Part shown: positions 1-8,463 of the stretch, one piece after another
Layout: every line of letters starts with the position of its first letter
How positions within the stretch are numbered: the first letter of the stretch is position 1
Source: an uncultured Gemmatimonadales bacterium
Lineage (GTDB): Bacteria; Gemmatimonadota; Gemmatimonadetes; Gemmatimonadales; GWC2-71-9
DNA length: 64,000 nt
Assembly: GCA_963730185.1 (NCBI GenBank)
Contig: CAVSQW010000012.1
Span: forward strand, 32,001-96,000
Reading direction: 5' to 3'
Program-made: the position numbers and the translations under genes
Notes under the pieces: model-generated
Seen by the model: only the letters and a program-made list of their open reading frames with translations
What the model was told of the DNA's origin: nothing
Databases searched by the model: none

Positions 1-768
1 GCCCCGAGAGATGCAGGCGGTGCGCCAGAGCGTAGCCGCCGGTGACCAGGGCGAGTGTCAGGAGGATCTCCACCTGGTAGTTGTCGACGCTCTTGAGCAT
101 CCGGAAGACGATCCAGCCGACCAGCCCACCGTACACGACGCCCCCAACCGCTTCGAGCGCCACCAGCTCGACGACCCGCCCGGACCCACGTCGCCCGATC
201 CGGTGGCGATCTGGAGGAGGACCAGGAACACCACCACGCCCACGCCGTCGTTGAAGAGCGACTCGCCCGAGATCTTGGTCAGGAGCGACGGGGGCAGCCC
301 GGCCTTCCGCAGGATGGCGCCGACCGCGATCGGGTCGGTCGGGGAGATCAGGGCCCCAAAGAGCAGGCAGTACGCCAGGGAGACCTCGAGGCCGAGCAGA
401 CCGAGCACCACGTGCGCCAGGCCGCCCACGATCGCGGTCGACACCAGCACCCCGACTGTGGCGAGGATCGCGATCACGCCGCGCTGGGCCGTGAGGCTGC
501 TGAGATCGAGGTGGAGCGCGCCGGCGAACAGCAAGGCGCCGAGCATGCCGTTGAGGAGGACCTCGTCGAAGTCGATGCCGGCCAGGAGATGGCGCATCGG
601 CTCTTCGAGGTGAACGCCGAAACGGCTGGCCAGCACCAACCCCAGCGAGAACGCGATCGAGATCACCATCAGCCCGATCGTCGTCGGCAACCGGATGAAC
701 CGGTGATTGAGCCACCCGAACAACGCCGCCAGCGTCGTCAGCCCGGCGACGACGTCGAAGGTGGTCAT
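1..768 (-). CDS. Na+/H+ antiporter, CPA1/NhaP family (3' end runs off the window; frameshift near 178)
   Basis: Motifs LFGALISPTDPIAV and ISGESLFNDGVGVV. ATG at 768 overlaps the upstream TGA (ATGA). The homologous sequence continues in another frame below ~178 (VVELVALEAVGG...DNYQVEILLTLAL). Confidence 0.85.
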
Positions 769-1343
769 CCCATACCCGGGAGCAGGTTGGCCTTGATGAG
801 GGTGGCCAGCCGGTTCTCGAGATGGCCGGTAGTCTCGCACCCGACCGGGTCGAGCGACGCCCCCTCGACGTCCCGTCCCATCGCCGTCGTCGCCAGGCCG
901 AGACGGGTTCCACCGCCGGGCCAGGGGTCGACGAACGCGGCCACGGCGATGGTCAGCCGGTAGCGATCGGCATTCGCGCCGACGATGCTGGATCCGCAGT
1001 TGAAGTAGCGGGACAGTGGCTCGCCGGCCAGGTTGAGACGCCGGACCAACTTCTCGTTTCCGATCAGCCCGTGAGCGGAATCCTCGACCTCGACCTTGAT
1101 GCCCAAGGACTCGAACGCATGCCGGACCGCGCCGAACACGCGAGCCGGCGGGGCCTCGAGCTCGCTCGAGACCGCGATCGTGTCGAGCGCCACCGGCACG
1201 GTGCGGGGCTGCAGCCGGACGACGGCGCGATACTCCTGGGCCACCAGTGGCGCGGTCGACCCCAGCAATAACAGCAGGGGGAGCATCAGCCGAAGCCCAC
1301 GACGAATCGAGACCACCTTCTCCTCCGTGCGATGGGAATCCAT
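765..1343 (-). CDS. Hypothetical secreted protein
   Basis: Signal-peptide-like segment (LMLPLLLLLGSTAPLVAQ), two Cys, and a stop coupled to the antiporter start. True start may be a downstream GTG/ATG. Confidence 0.65.
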   Translation of the reverse strand: MDSHRTEEKVVSIRRGLRLMLPLLLLLGSTAPLVAQEYRAVVRLQPRTVPVALDTIAVSSELEAPPARVFGAVRHAFESLGIKVEVEDSAHGLIGNEKLVRRLNLAGEPLSRYFNCGSSIVGANADRYRLTIAVAAFVDPWPGGGTRLGLATTAMGRDVEGASLDPVGCETTGHLENRLATLIKANLLPGMG

Positions 1344-1421: not shown

Positions 1422-3188
1422 ATGAATGGACTTCGGCTTCCGACCGTCGGAGTGGCGGGCTTGGCGCTGCTGCTCGCCTTGCCCGCCCGGGCGCGGGCCC
1501 AGGCGGCCACCCCCGACACGACCTGGCCCGGGTCGCTTCCTCCCGGCCAGTGGCAGCTCCCGGGCGGCGACTACGCCCAGACCCGCTTTAGCCCGCTCAC
1601 GGCCATCACGACCGCCAATGTGGCCGGCCTGAAGCCGGTCTGGAGCTTCAGCACCGGATCCCTCCGCGCCAACGAGGGTAGCCCGCTGGTGGTCGACTCC
1701 GTGATGTTCGTTCACACCCCGTTTCCCAACGCCGTCTTCGCCCTCGACCTGGCGCGACCCGGCGCGCCGATCCTCTGGAAGTACGAGGTTCCAGCCGCCA
1801 CCCGACGGCTGAACCCACCCGCCGGCTGGCGCGACGTCGGCAGCCTCGGCCTGGCCTACCACCCGAGTGGGAAGCTCTACGTCCCTCTCTTTCAGGGCGA
1901 GCTTGCCGCGCTCGACGCAGCCACCGGCCGGGAGATCTGGCGGGTGAAGAACGCCGACCGGGAAGCCGGCGGCAGCATGCCGGGCGCCCCGCTCGTGGTG
2001 CGCGATCTGGTCGTGGTCGGGACCGGCGGCGCGGAATACGGGGTTCGGGGCTCGCTCACCGCCTACAACGCCCTTACCGGCCAGTTGGTCTGGCGGGTGC
2101 AGCACACCGGGCCGGACAGCGCGGTCGGGATCCGGGGCGACGCCAATCCGGCCTACGCATCCCACCGCGGCCGCGATCTCGGGGTGACGAGCTGGGCCGG
2201 CGACGGCTGGCAACACGGGGGCGCCACCGCCTCGGGGTGGCTGGCGTACGACCCGGAGCTCGACCTGATCTACTACGGGACCGACCACCCCGCCCCGCTC
2301 AATCCGGCGTCCCGACCCGGCGACGACAAGTGGTCATCCACGATCTTCGCCCGCTCGGCCGCCACCGGCGAGGTTCGTTGGGCCTATCAGGTGACGCCGC
2401 ACGACGAGTGGGGGTACGACGCGTCGAACGAGACCATCCTGGCCGACCTGACCGTCGACGGGACACCGGTCAAGGCCCTGGTGCACCTCGACGCCAACGG
2501 ATTCGGGTACACCATCGACCGGACCACCGGTAAGGTGCTGCTCGCCGCCCGGCTCGGTCCCGTCAACTGGGCCACGCACGTCGACCTGACCACCGGCATC
2601 CCGTCGATCTCGCCGGCGTTCGAGACCGGGTCAGGGGCCCGGGTCAACAACGTCTGCCCGGCGACCATCGGCCTCAAGGGGCACCAGCCGGCGGCGTTCT
2701 CGCCCGGAACCTCGCTCTTCTTCGTGCCCCTCAACAATCTCTGCATGAGCTTCCGGGCCACCGCCGCAACCTACCAGGCCGGCAAGCTCTACACCGGCGC
2801 GACCATCCGGATGAGCGCCGGGCCGGGCGGGAGCCTGGGCCGGTTCGTCGCCTGGGATGCCGCGACCGGCACCATTGCGTGGCAAGTCCAGGAGCCCTAT
2901 CCGGTCACAGGGGGCGCCCTCGCCACCGCCGGTGGTCTGGTCTTCTACGGCACGATGGACGGCTGGCTCAAAGCCGTGGATCAACATACCGGCCAGGAGC
3001 TCTGGCGCTACAAGACGGCGTCCGGGATCATGGCCGCGCCGATGACCTTTCTCGGCCCCGACGGCCGCCAATACGTGGCGGTGCTGTCGGGCCTCGGTGG
3101 CTGGCTGGGGGCGGGCGGCAACGGTGCCATCGCCGATCCGGACGCCATCGCCAACCCCGGCGGCGTGTTGACCGTGTTCGCTCTCTGA
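1422..3188 (+). CDS. PQQ-dependent methanol/ethanol dehydrogenase-family (XoxF/MxaF-like) beta-propeller with a degenerate active site
   Basis: Signal peptide; TRFSPL..IT..NV..LK..WSFSTG, EGSPLVV, GAEYGVRG, RPGDDKWSSTIFAR, YQVTPHDEW, VFYGTMDGWLKAVD, repeated Trp-docking motifs. Active-site substitutions are listed under findings. Confidence 0.9.
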   Translation: MNGLRLPTVGVAGLALLLALPARARAQAATPDTTWPGSLPPGQWQLPGGDYAQTRFSPLTAITTANVAGLKPVWSFSTGSLRANEGSPLVVDSVMFVHTPFPNAVFALDLARPGAPILWKYEVPAATRRLNPPAGWRDVGSLGLAYHPSGKLYVPLFQGELAALDAATGREIWRVKNADREAGGSMPGAPLVVRDLVVVGTGGAEYGVRGSLTAYNALTGQLVWRVQHTGPDSAVGIRGDANPAYASHRGRDLGVTSWAGDGWQHGGATASGWLAYDPELDLIYYGTDHPAPLNPASRPGDDKWSSTIFARSAATGEVRWAYQVTPHDEWGYDASNETILADLTVDGTPVKALVHLDANGFGYTIDRTTGKVLLAARLGPVNWATHVDLTTGIPSISPAFETGSGARVNNVCPATIGLKGHQPAAFSPGTSLFFVPLNNLCMSFRATAATYQAGKLYTGATIRMSAGPGGSLGRFVAWDAATGTIAWQVQEPYPVTGGALATAGGLVFYGTMDGWLKAVDQHTGQELWRYKTASGIMAAPMTFLGPDGRQYVAVLSGLGGWLGAGGNGAIADPDAIANPGGVLTVFAL

Positions 3189-3196
3189 GGCCGTCC

Positions 3197-4087
3197 GTGC
3201 GCGCGGTGGTCCAAGGGTTGGCCCTGGTCTGGCTCACCGCCCCGACCGCGGCGGCGCAGCACCCCGAACCGGCCCTCCAGATACGCGAGACGGGGCGGAT
3301 AGTCGACCCGCGGGTCCCCGAGAGCTCCGGCGCCATTCGGGGAGTGGTGAACCCGGACGTCGTGTGGACCATCAACGACTCCGGCAACCCACCCACCTTG
3401 TTCGCCATCGACACCACCGGACGGGTGCGGGCCGCCATCGACCTGACCAATGCGACGAACGTCGACTGGGAGGCTATCTCGATCGGCCCCTGCCCCCGAA
3501 GCACCGAGCCCTGCCTCTACCTGGGCGACGTGGGCGACAACTTCTCCGGTCGCGGATCGGTCACCCTATACCGCCTCCCGGAGCCTCGGCTCGCTCCGTC
3601 GCCCCCGACCCGACTCGCGGTCCGCGACTCACTGGTGGTCCGCTACACCTCCGGGGCGGAGGACGTCGAATCGCTGGTGGTGACGGCCGGCGGCGACGCC
3701 CTGCTGTTCGGCAAGGGCTGGCACTCCCACCCCCACGTCTTCCTCGTTCCCGACAGCGCCTGGACCGGCGGACGTTACCGGGCCGCCCCGGTCGATTCGC
3801 TCCCCATCGAGACTGGATTGCTCCGGGGCGCTCTCGTGACCGACGCCGCCCTCTCTCCCGACCAGCGATGGCTCGCCGTCAGGACGTATCGGGAGATCTA
3901 CCTGTTCCGCCACTCGAGCCCGGGGCTCGGCGAGCTCCGGCACCCGGTCGGGATCTGCGACGTGAGCGGGCGGGAGCCGCAGGGCGAGGGGCTGGCATTC
4001 TGGAATCCGCACACCCTGGTCCTCACCAGCGAGCGTCTCTTCGCCGCGGACGGGACCGTCCTCCTGGTTCGATGCCCAGGGCTCTGA
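3197..4087 (+). CDS. Secreted beta-propeller-type hypothetical protein
   Basis: GTG start with signal peptide; ESSG, WTINDSGN, DWEAI, LYLGDVGDN, DVESL and QGEGLAF motifs, typical of a widespread uncharacterised propeller family. Confidence 0.7.
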   Translation: MRAVVQGLALVWLTAPTAAAQHPEPALQIRETGRIVDPRVPESSGAIRGVVNPDVVWTINDSGNPPTLFAIDTTGRVRAAIDLTNATNVDWEAISIGPCPRSTEPCLYLGDVGDNFSGRGSVTLYRLPEPRLAPSPPTRLAVRDSLVVRYTSGAEDVESLVVTAGGDALLFGKGWHSHPHVFLVPDSAWTGGRYRAAPVDSLPIETGLLRGALVTDAALSPDQRWLAVRTYREIYLFRHSSPGLGELRHPVGICDVSGREPQGEGLAFWNPHTLVLTSERLFAADGTVLLVRCPGL

Positions 4088-4977
4088 AGCGCTCGGCCTG
4101 GTGGCTGGCCCTGCCGCTGGCGGTCGCCACCTTGCTGTTGATCGGCCGACCGGCAAGCCGGCACCCGGTCCACCAGGCGGAGTGGCTCGACGCCGATGGG
4201 ATCCCCCTGCGGACCGTTCGGGCCGGCCGGGGCGACACGACCGTACTCCTGCTCCACGGTTTCGGCGAGTCGCTCTTCACCTGGCGCGCCCTCGTCGACC
4301 CCCTCGCCGTCCGCTTTCGGGTGGTCGCCCCGGACCTTCCGGGCTTCGGGGGCAGCGGGAAGCCCGACACCAGCTACTCGCTGGCCGAGATGACCCGCCA
4401 CGTGTCCGACTTCATGGACCGCTGGACCCGGGGACCGGTCATCGCGGTCGGCCACTCGATGGGCGGCGAGATCGCGGCCTCCCTCGCGATCGCCCGCCCC
4501 GATCGGATCGTGCGTCTGGTCCTGATCGCACCAGCTGGATGGGCGGTCGGATTGGGAGGGATCGCCGACACGATGTACCCGGCCAAGGCCCGAGCCATCA
4601 GCTGGTATCTGTCCAGCCGGGCCTTCATCCTGCCGGAGCACGACCCCGCCTGGCTCGGGGAGCCCGATTCGGCCGCCGACTACACCCTGGTCGGAGATCA
4701 GGCCTACCAGAACGCCACCGCCCGGATTCTGGAAGAGTTCGATTTCCGGTCTATGTGGGGACGATTTTCAGACATCAAACAGCCGACGCTGGTAGTCTGG
4801 GGATCCCTCGATCCGGTCATCCCGTACGCGCTGGCCGACAGCGTAACCGCCGCGATTCCGTGCGCCAGCCTGGAGACGATCTCAGGCGCGCTTCATCGGC
4901 CGCACGTCGAGGTCCCCGACCGGGTTCTCTCGCTCATTGATGGCTTCGTCTCGGCGAAAGCGCCCGATTGCCACTAG
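4072..4977 (+). CDS. Alpha/beta-fold hydrolase with N-terminal membrane anchor or signal
   Basis: LLHGFG oxyanion motif, DLPGFGGS, nucleophile elbow GHSMGG, WGSLDPVI acid and GALH His. Confidence 0.9.
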   Translation: MPRALKRSAWWLALPLAVATLLLIGRPASRHPVHQAEWLDADGIPLRTVRAGRGDTTVLLLHGFGESLFTWRALVDPLAVRFRVVAPDLPGFGGSGKPDTSYSLAEMTRHVSDFMDRWTRGPVIAVGHSMGGEIAASLAIARPDRIVRLVLIAPAGWAVGLGGIADTMYPAKARAISWYLSSRAFILPEHDPAWLGEPDSAADYTLVGDQAYQNATARILEEFDFRSMWGRFSDIKQPTLVVWGSLDPVIPYALADSVTAAIPCASLETISGALHRPHVEVPDRVLSLIDGFVSAKAPDCH

Positions 4978-5040
4978 TATTTGTCTTCTACAACTACTAT
5001 TTTGGCGCCGGTTTCGCTCCATGGGATCTCAACCACGGGA

Positions 5041-6153
5041 GTGCCTTTGGAACTACCGACCCAGCACCGAGTTCCGCTCAGCTGGCTGCTCGAAAACGGC
5101 AATGAGACCGTCCAGTTGCGCTCCTATCTGGACCTGGCCGAGCCCGGCTTCGCCTCGATCGAGATGATCACCGCGGCCGAGCAGGCCGTCGCCGCCGCCA
5201 AGGCCACCCAGACGCTGGTCAAGAAGCAGAAGGACGACGGCGTCTGGGGTGGCAACCTGCTCGGCCTTGGGCCCTCGGCCAAGGACGGGATCAAGGACAT
5301 CGGCACCGTGCCGCAGCATCGGCGGTTGCTGCAGCTCGGCTACCCCAGATCGGGCCGACCGTTCAAGCTGGCGGAACGGCTCCTGTTCCGGATCCTGTCC
5401 CGGGACGACGACCCCTTCCTCGAATTCGAGTTCGCGAAGGTCGCGAAGGCCGGGATCGAGGCGGGGGAGTGGGCTCGGGAGCACATGCGCGAGGCGGCCA
5501 CCGCCGCCTTGGCCGAGGCAGGTTTCGTCGAGGATCCCCGGATCCGGGGCTCCGCCCACAAGATCGCGACCAACGTGTCGCAGTTCCTCCGGAGCTCGCT
5601 GGCCGACAAGCCGTTCGTCCGCTCGGGCGCAAAGACCATTCTCGACCCCGAGGCGCACCCGCCAACCTGGTATTCGGTCGCGATGATCGCGGCGCTGCCC
5701 AACCTCCAGCGGGAGCGGGCCGGGTTCACCGAGCGGTTGGGGCAGTACCTCGGCACTCCCCAGACCAAGCGGGCCTTCACCCTCCAGGTGGGTAAGAGGA
5801 GCGTCAAGCCCGACTTCCTCCTGCTGGGTGACCCGATCTTGGCCGACGCCAGAGGCAATCCGAAGGACCTGCCCCTAGCGCTCTACTTCATCGAGCTCCT
5901 GGCCCGGATCGGCGCGCTCCATACCAACCCGCACGCCACCAAGGTGCTGGCGCGGCTCCTGACCGACTGCGACGACCAGGGGGTCTGGCGCCCGAAGGGG
6001 CTCAAGTCGGCGCCGAAGGCCACCCACAAGATCACGTATCACTGGTATCCCCTGCACTCGGACCTGAAGTCGACCGAGGGACGGCACGTCGACGTAACGT
6101 TCCGACTGGCGCTGATCGCGAAGCTTCTGGGCTGGCAGCTGGAGTACGTATGA
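5041..6153 (+). CDS. Conserved hypothetical protein, possible terpene-cyclase/prenyltransferase-like alpha-barrel (start may be TTG 4981)
   Basis: Long ORF with coding-like composition; QW-like repeats QKDDGVW and DCDDQGVW; N-terminal WLLE motif. Confidence 0.6.
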   Translation: MPLELPTQHRVPLSWLLENGNETVQLRSYLDLAEPGFASIEMITAAEQAVAAAKATQTLVKKQKDDGVWGGNLLGLGPSAKDGIKDIGTVPQHRRLLQLGYPRSGRPFKLAERLLFRILSRDDDPFLEFEFAKVAKAGIEAGEWAREHMREAATAALAEAGFVEDPRIRGSAHKIATNVSQFLRSSLADKPFVRSGAKTILDPEAHPPTWYSVAMIAALPNLQRERAGFTERLGQYLGTPQTKRAFTLQVGKRSVKPDFLLLGDPILADARGNPKDLPLALYFIELLARIGALHTNPHATKVLARLLTDCDDQGVWRPKGLKSAPKATHKITYHWYPLHSDLKSTEGRHVDVTFRLALIAKLLGWQLEYV

Positions 6154-6169
6154 CCGGCGGGCGGGGCCG

Positions 6170-6862
6170 ATGAGCTCGGCGCTCGACCTTACGGGGTTCG
6201 GGTTCACCCCGACAGAGAGCCTAGTCTACGAGGTCCTGGTCCGAAGCGGGCCCGGGACCGGTTACGCGATCGCCCGGGCGGCGGGGCTGGCCCGGGCGAA
6301 TGCGTACAGCGCCCTCGAGGGGCTGGCCCAGAAGGGCGCGGCCCGGGTGGACGAGGGGCGCCCCAAGCGCTACCGTCCCGAGCCGCCTAGCACCCTGATC
6401 GCCCGGATCGTCGACCGTCAGGGGCAGGCCCTGGAGACGCTCTCGTCGGTGCTGGACGCGATCTCGGTCCCGACGAGCCCCACTTTGGTCGAGCTCGCTT
6501 CCGCCCGCGGGTTGCTGCAGCTCGCCTCGCACGAGATCGCCCGCGCGGAGACGCGGGTCCGGCTGGTGGCGCCGGCGGACGCCTTTCCGATCCTGACCCC
6601 CGCGCTTCGCAAGGCCGCGACCAGCGGCGTCGTGGTCGCCCTGGGCGCGCCGATCCCGGTCCATCTGCCGTTCGCTCCGGTAGTGGCCATCGCCGCTCCG
6701 GAGCGCTGGCCGGGAGAGCCGTTCCTCTTCACGGTGGACGGGCGGGGGGCGGCCCTCGCCGCCCGAGCGGGCGACCAGGTGAGCGGCCACTGGGGCACCG
6801 GTCCGATCCTGGTCGCGGCCGCGGATCTCCTGCTCGACACCCTGCTGGGTGGCGATCGATGA
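6170..6862 (+). CDS. TrmB-family transcriptional regulator
   Basis: FGFTPTESLVYEVL..G..TGYAIARAAGLARANAYSALEGL..KG winged HTH followed by a TrmB-like middle domain. Confidence 0.85.
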   Translation: MSSALDLTGFGFTPTESLVYEVLVRSGPGTGYAIARAAGLARANAYSALEGLAQKGAARVDEGRPKRYRPEPPSTLIARIVDRQGQALETLSSVLDAISVPTSPTLVELASARGLLQLASHEIARAETRVRLVAPADAFPILTPALRKAATSGVVVALGAPIPVHLPFAPVVAIAAPERWPGEPFLFTVDGRGAALAARAGDQVSGHWGTGPILVAAADLLLDTLLGGDR

Positions 6863-8463
6863 CCGGCGTCGATGAATTCTTCGAAGAGCTCCGCCGCGAG
6901 TACCTGACCGAGGCCGCCGCCCGCCTGGCCGAGCTGCGGAAGGACCTGGCGGCACTGATGGCCGGTGAGCCCGACGCCGCCGATTCGCTCAAGATCCGCT
7001 TCCACCGGCTAGCCGGCTCGGGGGGCAGCTACGGCTTTCCGGACATCAGCGCCGTCAGCCGGGAAGCGGAGCTCTGGCTCAAGGACAACCCGTCGCCCTC
7101 GCCCGAGGCGCCCGGCCGGTTGGAGGAGTGGGTCAGCCGCCTGGCCCGCGCCTTCGATGCCGCCGCCGTCGAGTTCGGCCTCCCGACCGGGGGAACGGCC
7201 CGACGGGTCCCATTCGGCTGGCAGGCTCTGGTCCTCGGCGACCCGAGTGACCCTCTGGTCGACCGGGTGGCTCGATGCCTGGTCGACGCCCAGTACACCG
7301 TCGGTCATCGCCCGATCGAGACCGACCCGGCGTCGGTTCCGGTGTCCGAGCGACCCGATCTGGCCGTGCTCGTTCCCGAGCAGCCCACGGTGGAGTCGGC
7401 CGCCCTCGGGCGGTGGGCGGTCCCGGGCTCGACCCGGCCGTCGTCGGTCCTCCTGGTCGCCGACCCCGAGGCGATCGACCCGCTGGCCCAACCGTATTCC
7501 GATTTCGACTCCCTGGTGCCCCCGGAGCGGGTTGAGACCGAGCTCCAGAGCTACGTCCGGGCGATCGGCCGCTCGGCCAACACGCCGCCCGTCGTGCTGG
7601 TGCTCGAGCCGGACGAGGCCCACGCGGACTCACTCCAGTCGGCGATCGAAGGTCTGGGCGGGCGGGTGATTCTGGTCAAGTGTGCGAGGGCGCTTCGGGC
7701 CGCGCTCCGGGATGAGACCCCCGACCTGATCCTGACCGAGTGGAGGCTGCCCGACACCTCCGGGGTCGCCCTGCTCCGCTTTATCAGCCAGGTCGCCTCC
7801 CATCGATCGACCCCGGTCGTGGTCTACACGCTCCGCCCCAGTGACGAGGAGCGCCTCGCGGCGATCCGGGCCGGGGCCGACGACGTCCTGTCAAAAGCCG
7901 CGTCTCCCACCCACACGGTGCAGATGATCCAGGCCAGGATCGAGCGAGGTCGCCGGCTCCGTTCTCTGGCCCACCGGGACGACCTCACCGGCCTTTTGAA
8001 CCACGCCTCGATGGTGGAGGAACTGGTGTCGGCGGTCGCGTTCGCCCGTCGGGCAGAGGAGACCTTCGGGCTGATCCTGCTCGATCTCGACCATTTCCGA
8101 CGAATCAATGAGCAGCACGGACACCTTGTGGGCGACCGGTTGCTGGCGCAGGTCGCCCGAACGGTAGCGGGCTCGGTGCGCTCGAGCGACTTCGTCGCCC
8201 GGATGGGTGGGGAGGAGATCGGGGTGCTCGTTCGGCGCTGCTCGGCAGCGAACTGCGGCGCCCTCGCGGAGAAGGTCCGAGCAGCAGTGAACCGGATCGT
8301 CGTGCCGGCCGGCGAGGCGCCAGTTCAAGTTCGAGCCAGCGCCGGCGCGGCCTGCTTCCCGGACCACGCCTCGACCGCCCCTGATCTCCTTCGCGCCGCC
8401 GGGCGGGCGCTGGCCCGAGCGAAGGCCGGAGGCCGAGACCGCCTGGCGATCGGCGATCCCTGA
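6859..8463 (+). CDS. Diguanylate cyclase, Hpt-(REC-like)-REC-GGDEF
   Basis: Hpt motif FHRLAGSGGSYG; DDLTGLLN, DLDHFRRIN, GHLVGD, RxxD I-site (RSSD) and GGEEI; ATGA overlap with the TrmB gene. Confidence 0.9.
   Translation: MTGVDEFFEELRREYLTEAAARLAELRKDLAALMAGEPDAADSLKIRFHRLAGSGGSYGFPDISAVSREAELWLKDNPSPSPEAPGRLEEWVSRLARAFDAAAVEFGLPTGGTARRVPFGWQALVLGDPSDPLVDRVARCLVDAQYTVGHRPIETDPASVPVSERPDLAVLVPEQPTVESAALGRWAVPGSTRPSSVLLVADPEAIDPLAQPYSDFDSLVPPERVETELQSYVRAIGRSANTPPVVLVLEPDEAHADSLQSAIEGLGGRVILVKCARALRAALRDETPDLILTEWRLPDTSGVALLRFISQVASHRSTPVVVYTLRPSDEERLAAIRAGADDVLSKAASPTHTVQMIQARIERGRRLRSLAHRDDLTGLLNHASMVEELVSAVAFARRAEETFGLILLDLDHFRRINEQHGHLVGDRLLAQVARTVAGSVRSSDFVARMGGEEIGVLVRRCSAANCGALAEKVRAAVNRIVVPAGEAPVQVRASAGAACFPDHASTAPDLLRAAGRALARAKAGGRDRLAIGDP

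Follow-up and report, generated by a model that had tools for sequence, protein, structure and literature searches.

The gene at 1422..3188 on the forward strand of the window, a 64,000-nucleotide stretch of a Gemmatimonadales genome, encodes a protein of XoxF ancestry whose dehydrogenase active site has been dismantled, and the clade to which it belongs is very probably a maintained non-dehydrogenase. It is a pseudoenzyme in the sense that the catalytic residues are lost with the fold and the reading frame kept under purifying selection. The original prediction had seen in it an intact propeller repurposed from a PQQ-dependent dehydrogenase, and the present analysis supports this in part, as far as a conserved pseudo-dehydrogenase is concerned: the core losses are shared by relatives, dN/dS lies well under 1, the fold has been retained and the partner genes of XoxF were not found.

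The pseudo-XoxF protein was placed in its family by sequence and by structure. Its best solved matches by HMMER are 4MAE (E 4e-161), followed by 6DAM and 6OC5; 4TQO could also be aligned. The AF2 model computed from an alignment (pLDDT 89.9) has a dehydrogenase-type propeller over residues 33–588, and superposes on 4MAE with a Z of 57 and an rmsd of 1.4 A over 549 residues, in keeping with the conserved fold that had been predicted. HMMER, structure superposition and the tree thus agree on an eight-bladed PQQ-dehydrogenase propeller of XoxF ancestry. The protein also passes the TIGR03075 model (PQQ-dependent dehydrogenase, methanol/ethanol family) with 555 bits against a cut-off of 480.05, which accounts for the active-enzyme labels in the clade. 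N-termini resembling its signal region were seen in 16 relatives. A promoter and terminator scan of positions 1200–1500 found none, a search of the Atlas with pseudo-XoxF returned generic PQQ-dehydrogenase clusters only, and a search of phages gave only weak GDH-like matches.

Substitutions were placed via HMMER alignments to 4MAE, 6DAM, 6OC5 and 4TQO, and every one that had been listed beforehand was recovered at the expected codon of a full-length, intact ORF. MxaF numbering is used throughout; except for D303, the position numbers are conventional ones or those of the original prediction, and the list of PQQ contacts is in part background knowledge as well. The features of the gene are as follows.

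1422..3188, + strand: gene of pseudo-XoxF (588 aa), a propeller of the eight-bladed PQQ-dehydrogenase type, no stop within the ORF
1422..1499, + strand: likely Sec signal peptide, residues 1-26, with A-x-A before QA, judged by eye
1827..1847, + strand: disulfide loop, C103-C104 to W-R (TGG CGC, 1827-1832), V/N to G/S, R109 to L (1845)
1980, + strand: T159 to P, by alignment
2025, + strand: S174 to G, by alignment
2034..2036, + strand: E177-equivalent (E205), kept, by alignment
2232..2234, + strand: PQQ-stacking W243 to S, by alignment
2283..2300, + strand: new Asp and metal-ligand segment, G260 to D (D288) at 2283, N261 to H at 2286, W265 to L at 2298
2412..2420, + strand: catalytic D303 to G (GGG, 2412-2414), +2 lanthanide Asp (D305) kept, by alignment
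2493..2495, + strand: R331 to A, by alignment
2679, + strand: N394 to G, by alignment
2907, + strand: W476 to T, by alignment
3102..3113, + strand: site of a deletion of about 15 residues right after the W540-equivalent, by spacing comparison

The XoxF1 ligands and neighbours named E192, W258, N276, W280, D318, D320 and R345 in the numbering of 6OC5 (bioRxiv 2020.02.25.964783, in the portion of the text consulted) correspond to E205, S271, H289, L293, G331, D333 and A358 of the window protein. The metal ligands Glu and +2 Asp are therefore present and the Asn and Asp missing, so that the ligand set of XoxF is incomplete; the catalytic Asp (D303/D318), the vicinal disulfide and the PQQ-stacking Trp are all gone. 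E55, E177, D305, W540 and C386/C415 are kept. To put figures on the predicted concentration of losses in the pocket, we took the 128 positions whose invariance reaches 95% or more across 86 homologues with an intact active site (14 in the pocket, 114 elsewhere). The window protein deviates at 10/14 pocket vs 9/114 other positions (Fisher p=3e-7) and the clade at 6/14 vs 5/114 (p=2e-4), a contrast that agrees with the prediction and is partly circular, since the pocket list was drawn partly from it.

The changed codons are real. Contigs from the soil run X3 (depth 2.2-4) come from a close soil relative; over their length, 20 codons differ from the window gene synonymously and 10 non-synonymously. 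They encode the same W-R pair, the sole difference in its codons being a silent one at 1832, and are identical to the window gene at the G331 and A358 codons. Sequencing error, which had been named as a possible undoing of the prediction, is thereby ruled out for these substitutions.

For the clade, we compared 120 rows, consisting of the query and the 119 other best-scoring clusters, 57–75% identical, of 3,890 matches. Among these best 120 of 3,890, the catalytic position holds Gly in 117, Ala in 2 and Arg in 1, and never Asp; the PQQ-stacking Trp, W265, T159 and W476 are each found in 0/120, and the Asn metal ligand is replaced by Q (71), H (30), R (13), E (4) or P (1), with a single N. Immediately preceding the Asn-ligand position, the new Asp260 is fixed (119/120 of the same best-scoring set), and position 177 holds Glu in 107/120, Asp in 9/120 and N or G in 4/120. 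Other contacts are mostly retained: in the best 120 of 3,890, C103, C104 and R109 are kept in 116/120 each, R331 in 109/120 and E55 in 118/120. The expectation that orthologues would share the substitutions thus holds for the catalytic Asp, the stacking Trp, W265, T159 and W476, and fails for the disulfide, R109 and R331. As the disulfide, R109, R331, E55 and E177 are mostly kept in its relatives, the window gene is an extreme member of the clade; W-R and L109 are private to its sub-lineage and the Ala at 331 is largely its own, with G140 and S141 clade-wide. The disulfide is lost in 4/119 members, both cysteines always together (WR 2, WG 1, SG 1), and E55, C103, C104, R109 and R331 are jointly kept in 104/119.

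The proposed lanthanide site, with E177, the +2 Asp and also the new His as ligands, is not supported by this comparison in the form suggested, as the +2 Asp occurs in only 39/120 and His261 in 30/120 of the best 120 of 3,890. Of the residues put forward for such a site, what stands clade-wide is the new Asp260 and an acid at 177 (116/120). Indeed, among the five site positions just two are acids in 75/119 members.

Several pocket changes are fixed, i.e., D260 in 99%, G303 in 97%, S243 in 91%, A176 in 92% and G140 in 93%, and D260 is the sole newly fixed polar side chain of any size in the pocket region; the earliest-branching clade member is without it. The positions of N261, W265, N394 and W476 vary freely, and scaffold positions are kept at 109/114. 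A further clade-wide feature, absent from the original prediction, is the deletion after W540: the spacing that follows this residue is 17-20 in 113/113 parsable clade members (7 unparsed), vs 31-33 in 78/78 active homologues that could be parsed (5 others lack the end motif and 3 the anchor). The deleted segment is one that we take to border the substrate funnel.

Three observations concern single rows of the comparison. P0123 and P0126 are very divergent (44-45% identical) and form long branches within the pseudo-XoxF clade; P0126 likewise has W-R at the disulfide position and is without R109. In P0120, a DUF4015 putative glycosyl hydrolase is fused in frame to a pseudo-XoxF without its own signal peptide, as a single case.

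The gene is maintained in its hosts. Pseudo-XoxF was found in 21/22 genomes of the host genus, 20 with D303 replaced by G and one cut by a contig end, at a single fixed locus in these 21. The 22nd genome is also without the neighbouring 390-aa gene and lon, so that its missing copy is probably an assembly gap. Two related genera have the gene as well, relatives with names are Gemmatimonadales MAGs, and in a 301-genome sample of the order, for which the best 30 matches were inspected, the 8 top matches are of the pseudo-XoxF form and the next 22 have intact site motifs with xoxJ/xoxG adjoining. No pseudo-XoxF match listed has an internal stop. As anticipated, dN/dS among orthologues is below 1: by NG86 it is 0.056-0.139 over the 10 closest non-identical pseudo-XoxF pairs, resembling that of intact XoxF (0.036-0.213, 14 closest pairs) and of neighbour genes. 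Pairs that include the window gene itself reach 0.27-0.35, with dS close to saturation, and the same holds for its neighbours.

The locus order is pterin enzymes, pfk, OmpA-like, pseudo-xoxF, propeller, alpha/beta hydrolase, 390-aa protein, TrmB, GGDEF, lon. Downstream in the window lie the following.

3188..4087, + strand: secreted propeller with no Pfam match, SdiA-regulated/phytase-like by Atlas features; the usual, not constant, downstream neighbour
4084..8463, + strand: conserved block of alpha/beta hydrolase, 390-aa protein, TrmB-type regulator and GGDEF-motif response regulator

The downstream propeller, the hydrolase and TrmB occur at the same locus in genomes without pseudo-XoxF. The block at 4084..8463 is thus older at the locus than pseudo-XoxF, and since these neighbours predate it, the neighbourhood indicates no specific function. 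A complex prediction for pseudo-XoxF with the downstream propeller scored 0.00, which counts neither way. Separately, the Atlas cluster set of the propeller (3188-4087, +) is mostly from Gemmatimonadota and closest to SdiA-regulated/phytase-like proteins; the 390-aa protein (4981-6153, +) has no Pfam match, is single-copy in 57/61 order genomes and, at the loci examined, usually precedes a TrmB-type regulator; and at window 2-840 (-) there is a Na+/H+-antiporter-like gene (by eye) whose reading frame appears to shift near position 180, so that it is a pseudogene or else the assembly has an indel there.

On the evidence of trees and gene order, pseudo-XoxF has descended vertically from XoxF, the lanthanide methanol dehydrogenase of the Gemmatimonadales. 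Quick trees were used, the final one without the long-branch rows P0123, P0126, P0135 and P0153. The clade is monophyletic in all of them (support 100). Without the long-branch rows, it joins the intact XoxFs of the genomes G026, G027, G028 and G036 (SH-aLRT 99.7), whereas with them it is sister to all intact Gemmatimonadota XoxF; this variation in placement counts against the origin given here. An XoxF3-like grouping is rejected (p-AU 0.008) and an XoxF5-like grouping is not (p-AU 0.205). In the tree of the neighbouring 390-aa gene, the carriers form one clade among the same methylotrophic hosts, and the stem of that clade is about 0.06 changes per site, vs 0.43 for pseudo-XoxF, a rough comparison as the tree methods differ.

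Gene order points the same way. In G033, whose locus is spread over two contigs both ending inside xoxF, an intact island runs pterin dehydratase, DUF6513, pabB, xoxF, xoxJ, xoxG, pentapeptide, YncE-like, and continues into pfk, OmpA-like, DUF4015, the 390-aa gene, TrmB, GGDEF and lon. Carriers have the dehydratase and pfk without this island in between, and their altered xoxF follows closely after pfk. From this arrangement we infer that methylotrophy was lost and that xoxF survived locally. Thus, an ancestor would have lost the methylotrophy island between the pterin-dehydratase gene and pfk, and xoxF may have outlived the loss a few genes away and then undergone a fast burst of remodelling.

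The window had been described as free of pqq and xox partners, and pqqC (detected with TIGR02111), pqqE, xoxJ and xoxG were not found in its whole genome either (82% complete). In the 23 carriers (73-98% complete), the queries for pqqC, xoxJ, xoxG and DUF6513, an H4MPT-cluster gene, gave no match. These four genes co-occur in the same 6/61 genomes, and pseudo-XoxF was not found among the matches or inspected loci of these six methylotrophic relatives. This exclusivity reflects one evolutionary event, so the genomes are not independent cases and amount to no statistical association.

Some carriers have other PQQ-type genes. A further XoxF-type gene, its site motifs intact, occurs in about half of the host genus; G000 has such a paralogue plus ADH/GDH-like genes. 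This paralogue (G000:C15:748620-750844, L002) is XoxF3-like and adjoins a small c-type cytochrome, in a genome without a pqqC, pqqE or xoxJ match. In G006 (98% complete), six-bladed GSDH-family genes are present, and pseudo-XoxF is the only match to P0001 and PF01011, which leaves no second match to an eight-bladed PQQ dehydrogenase. Nor does any further match reach the XoxF level in G021 and G025.

What, then, does the protein do? Dehydrogenase activity is very unlikely, since neither the catalytic Asp nor the Asn ligand remains; in XoxF1, according to the part of bioRxiv 2020.02.25.964783 consulted, losing just the +2 Asp is enough to abolish both La binding and activity. The explanation that we favour, tentatively and as somewhat short of probable, is a secreted, PQQ-independent, non-redox binding protein. 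Bulky pocket residues have given way to small ones and the loop after W540 is deleted, so that the cavity would open, and in the widened pocket the acid pair E177/D260 is predicted to bind an ordinary divalent metal, or else some cationic ligand. This reading is favoured by the fixed smaller pocket residues and by D260 beside the retained acid at 177; moreover, the window copy is without the vicinal cysteines, R109 and R331 and yet is constrained, which makes the PQQ contacts look dispensable. Counting against it, the joint retention of E55, C103, C104, R109 and R331 in 104/119 members is just as compatible with residual PQQ binding, E177 is not strictly conserved, D260 is lacking in the earliest-branching member, and two acids make a weak metal site. 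A fuller account is possible, if doubtful: after the loss of methylotrophy, the protein would have been neofunctionalised with a cofactor-free, purpose-built E177/D260 site, becoming a periplasmic receptor for a metal or metabolite, or a non-redox enzyme, on the XoxF scaffold.

The retained contacts could instead mean that the protein is a metal-free carrier or buffer of PQQ for PQQ-scavenging hosts, with a PqqT-like role on a dehydrogenase fold. We consider this unlikely, although several observations fit: besides the joint retention just mentioned, carriers without a pqqC match keep other PQQ enzymes (G000, G006), and in PqqT a Lys replaces the metal (PMC11331073, in the part consulted), the Asn ligand here being His or Arg in 43/120 of the best 120 of 3,890. 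However, the stacking Trp is gone in 120/120 of these best-scoring rows, T159 and W476 are likewise missing throughout, the 91-98% retention seen for the remaining contacts falls inside the ordinary range of scaffold positions, and the window copy still shows purifying selection after losing the cysteines, R109 and R331. In that copy, PQQ binding would have to be weakened or rewired, with W103 as a lid and R104 replacing R109. Ranking below the carrier, and unlikely as well, is a role of the outer surface, in which the pocket decays and selection acts on a scaffold or membrane-sensor signalling partner that retains a non-catalytic regulatory role of XoxF. Catalytically dead XoxF1 D320A is still regulatory in M. 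extorquens, according to the available portion of bioRxiv 2020.02.25.964783, and the kept scaffold next to the freely varying N261, W265, N394 and W476 positions would be expected from it; the fixation of D260, G303, S243, A176 and G140 would not, and no sensor kinase lies among the conserved neighbours examined.

The predicted wider pocket and the new fixed Asp might also serve an altered chemistry, either a bulky-substrate PQQ enzyme with a shifted base or a cofactor-free E177/D260 hydrolase, and the P0120 fusion to a putative glycosyl hydrolase, together with DUF4015 upstream at several loci, could be taken in the same sense. Such an enzyme seems decidedly improbable: no cytochrome partner lies at the locus, E177 varies, there is no clade-wide candidate base aside from D260, and the fusion is single. 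DUF4015 was at the locus earlier and was found in just 6/21 genus genomes, and a functional link to it was rejected as positional only. A role as the inactive subunit of a working XoxF, or as its chaperone, the heterodimer partnership of the original prediction, would suit G000 and the roughly half of the genus with a second gene whose site motifs are intact; it is very unlikely given that G006 has no other match to an eight-bladed PQQ dehydrogenase and G021 and G025 no other XoxF-level match, and that the methylotrophic relatives lack the pseudo-gene among their matches and inspected loci. Hardly credible, finally, is a functionless relic heading for loss, or a sequence error. The clade has evolved faster than intact XoxF and pocket losses are still accumulating, as in the disulfide, but at clade level this explanation is refuted by intact frames in the listed matches, dN/dS of about 0.1, near-universal retention in the genus and the independent X3 contigs.

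The clade was also compared with known systems. The TIGR04528 family (acido-empty-quinoprotein group A), presumably of hosts that do not make PQQ, also comprises quinoprotein-like propellers; pseudo-XoxF scores 281 bits against its cut-off of 650 and belongs to a different family. BamB and YxaL share the blade architecture and are non-enzymatic (Z 29-33), but they are much shorter and about 19% identical, whereas pseudo-XoxF is a recent, full-length XoxF derivative. The XoxF of Methylacidiphilum fumariolicum (4MAE/6FKW) and XoxF1 of M. extorquens (6OC5) are the best sequence and fold matches; compared with them, the clade retains the Glu of the four ligands, plus the +2 Asp in a third of members, and has neither the catalytic Asp nor the stacking Trp. 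The Gemmatimonadota XoxF locus of Butterfield et al. 2016 (PMC5103831) holds the ancestor-type gene, 50-58% identical and the nearest clade in all trees; as described in the part consulted, that XoxF carries the full set of catalytic and cofactor residues, with xoxJ, xoxG, H4MPT and pqq genes beside it, whereas pseudo-XoxF is without those residues, the segment of about 15 residues and all those partners. The intact XoxF of G033 lies in the same chromosomal region as pseudo-XoxF, and this sister locus matches that of Butterfield et al. 2016 as far as the latter was seen. PqqT, in the sections of PMC11331073 consulted, is a precedent for a non-catalytic, metal-free periplasmic PQQ binder; it has a solute-binding-protein fold, in contrast to the propeller of pseudo-XoxF, for which any PQQ binding is putative.

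A second, independent dead XoxF-like clade was seen on an XoxF3-like branch. It consists of the P0135 cluster (P0273-P0279) and P0153 and has no catalytic Asp or stacking Trp; P0135 is also without the cysteine pair. Three NCBI members, which belong to Acetobacteraceae MAGs, bear the label 'lanthanide-dependent methanol dehydrogenase'. This clade suggests that the passage from XoxF to non-enzyme is a recurring route. In addition, among 152 scored sequences (150 profile matches at 50% clustering, P0122-P0271, and two earlier matches), the Asp at the catalytic position is missing in 30, with a gap in one; some of these could stem from misalignment, but degenerate homologues of PQQ dehydrogenases seem to recur.

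The pseudoenzyme clade is real and apparently undescribed. No description of a dead XoxF clade was found in a literature search that covered few subscription papers, nor does such a clade appear in the consulted parts of bioRxiv 2026.07.10.737718, PMC10875860, PMC5103831, PMC6784897, PMC11845868 and PMC13088180. Judged by active-site residues, the clade is not XoxF, though it descends from XoxF and is so annotated. It offers a tractable case of an enzyme turned pseudoenzyme with the active ancestor type at hand, a natural test for the poorly understood non-catalytic roles of XoxF, and a natural propeller with a rebuilt pocket, of relevance to lanthanide and PQQ protein chemistry. Furthermore, XoxF counts serve as soil markers of lanthanide-dependent methylotrophy, with Gemmatimonadota as major holders. 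As the clade passes the family HMM and 13/120 clusters (of the best 120 of 3,890 matches) carry the source label 'lanthanide-dependent methanol dehydrogenase', surveys based on the HMM only would overcall methanol oxidation.
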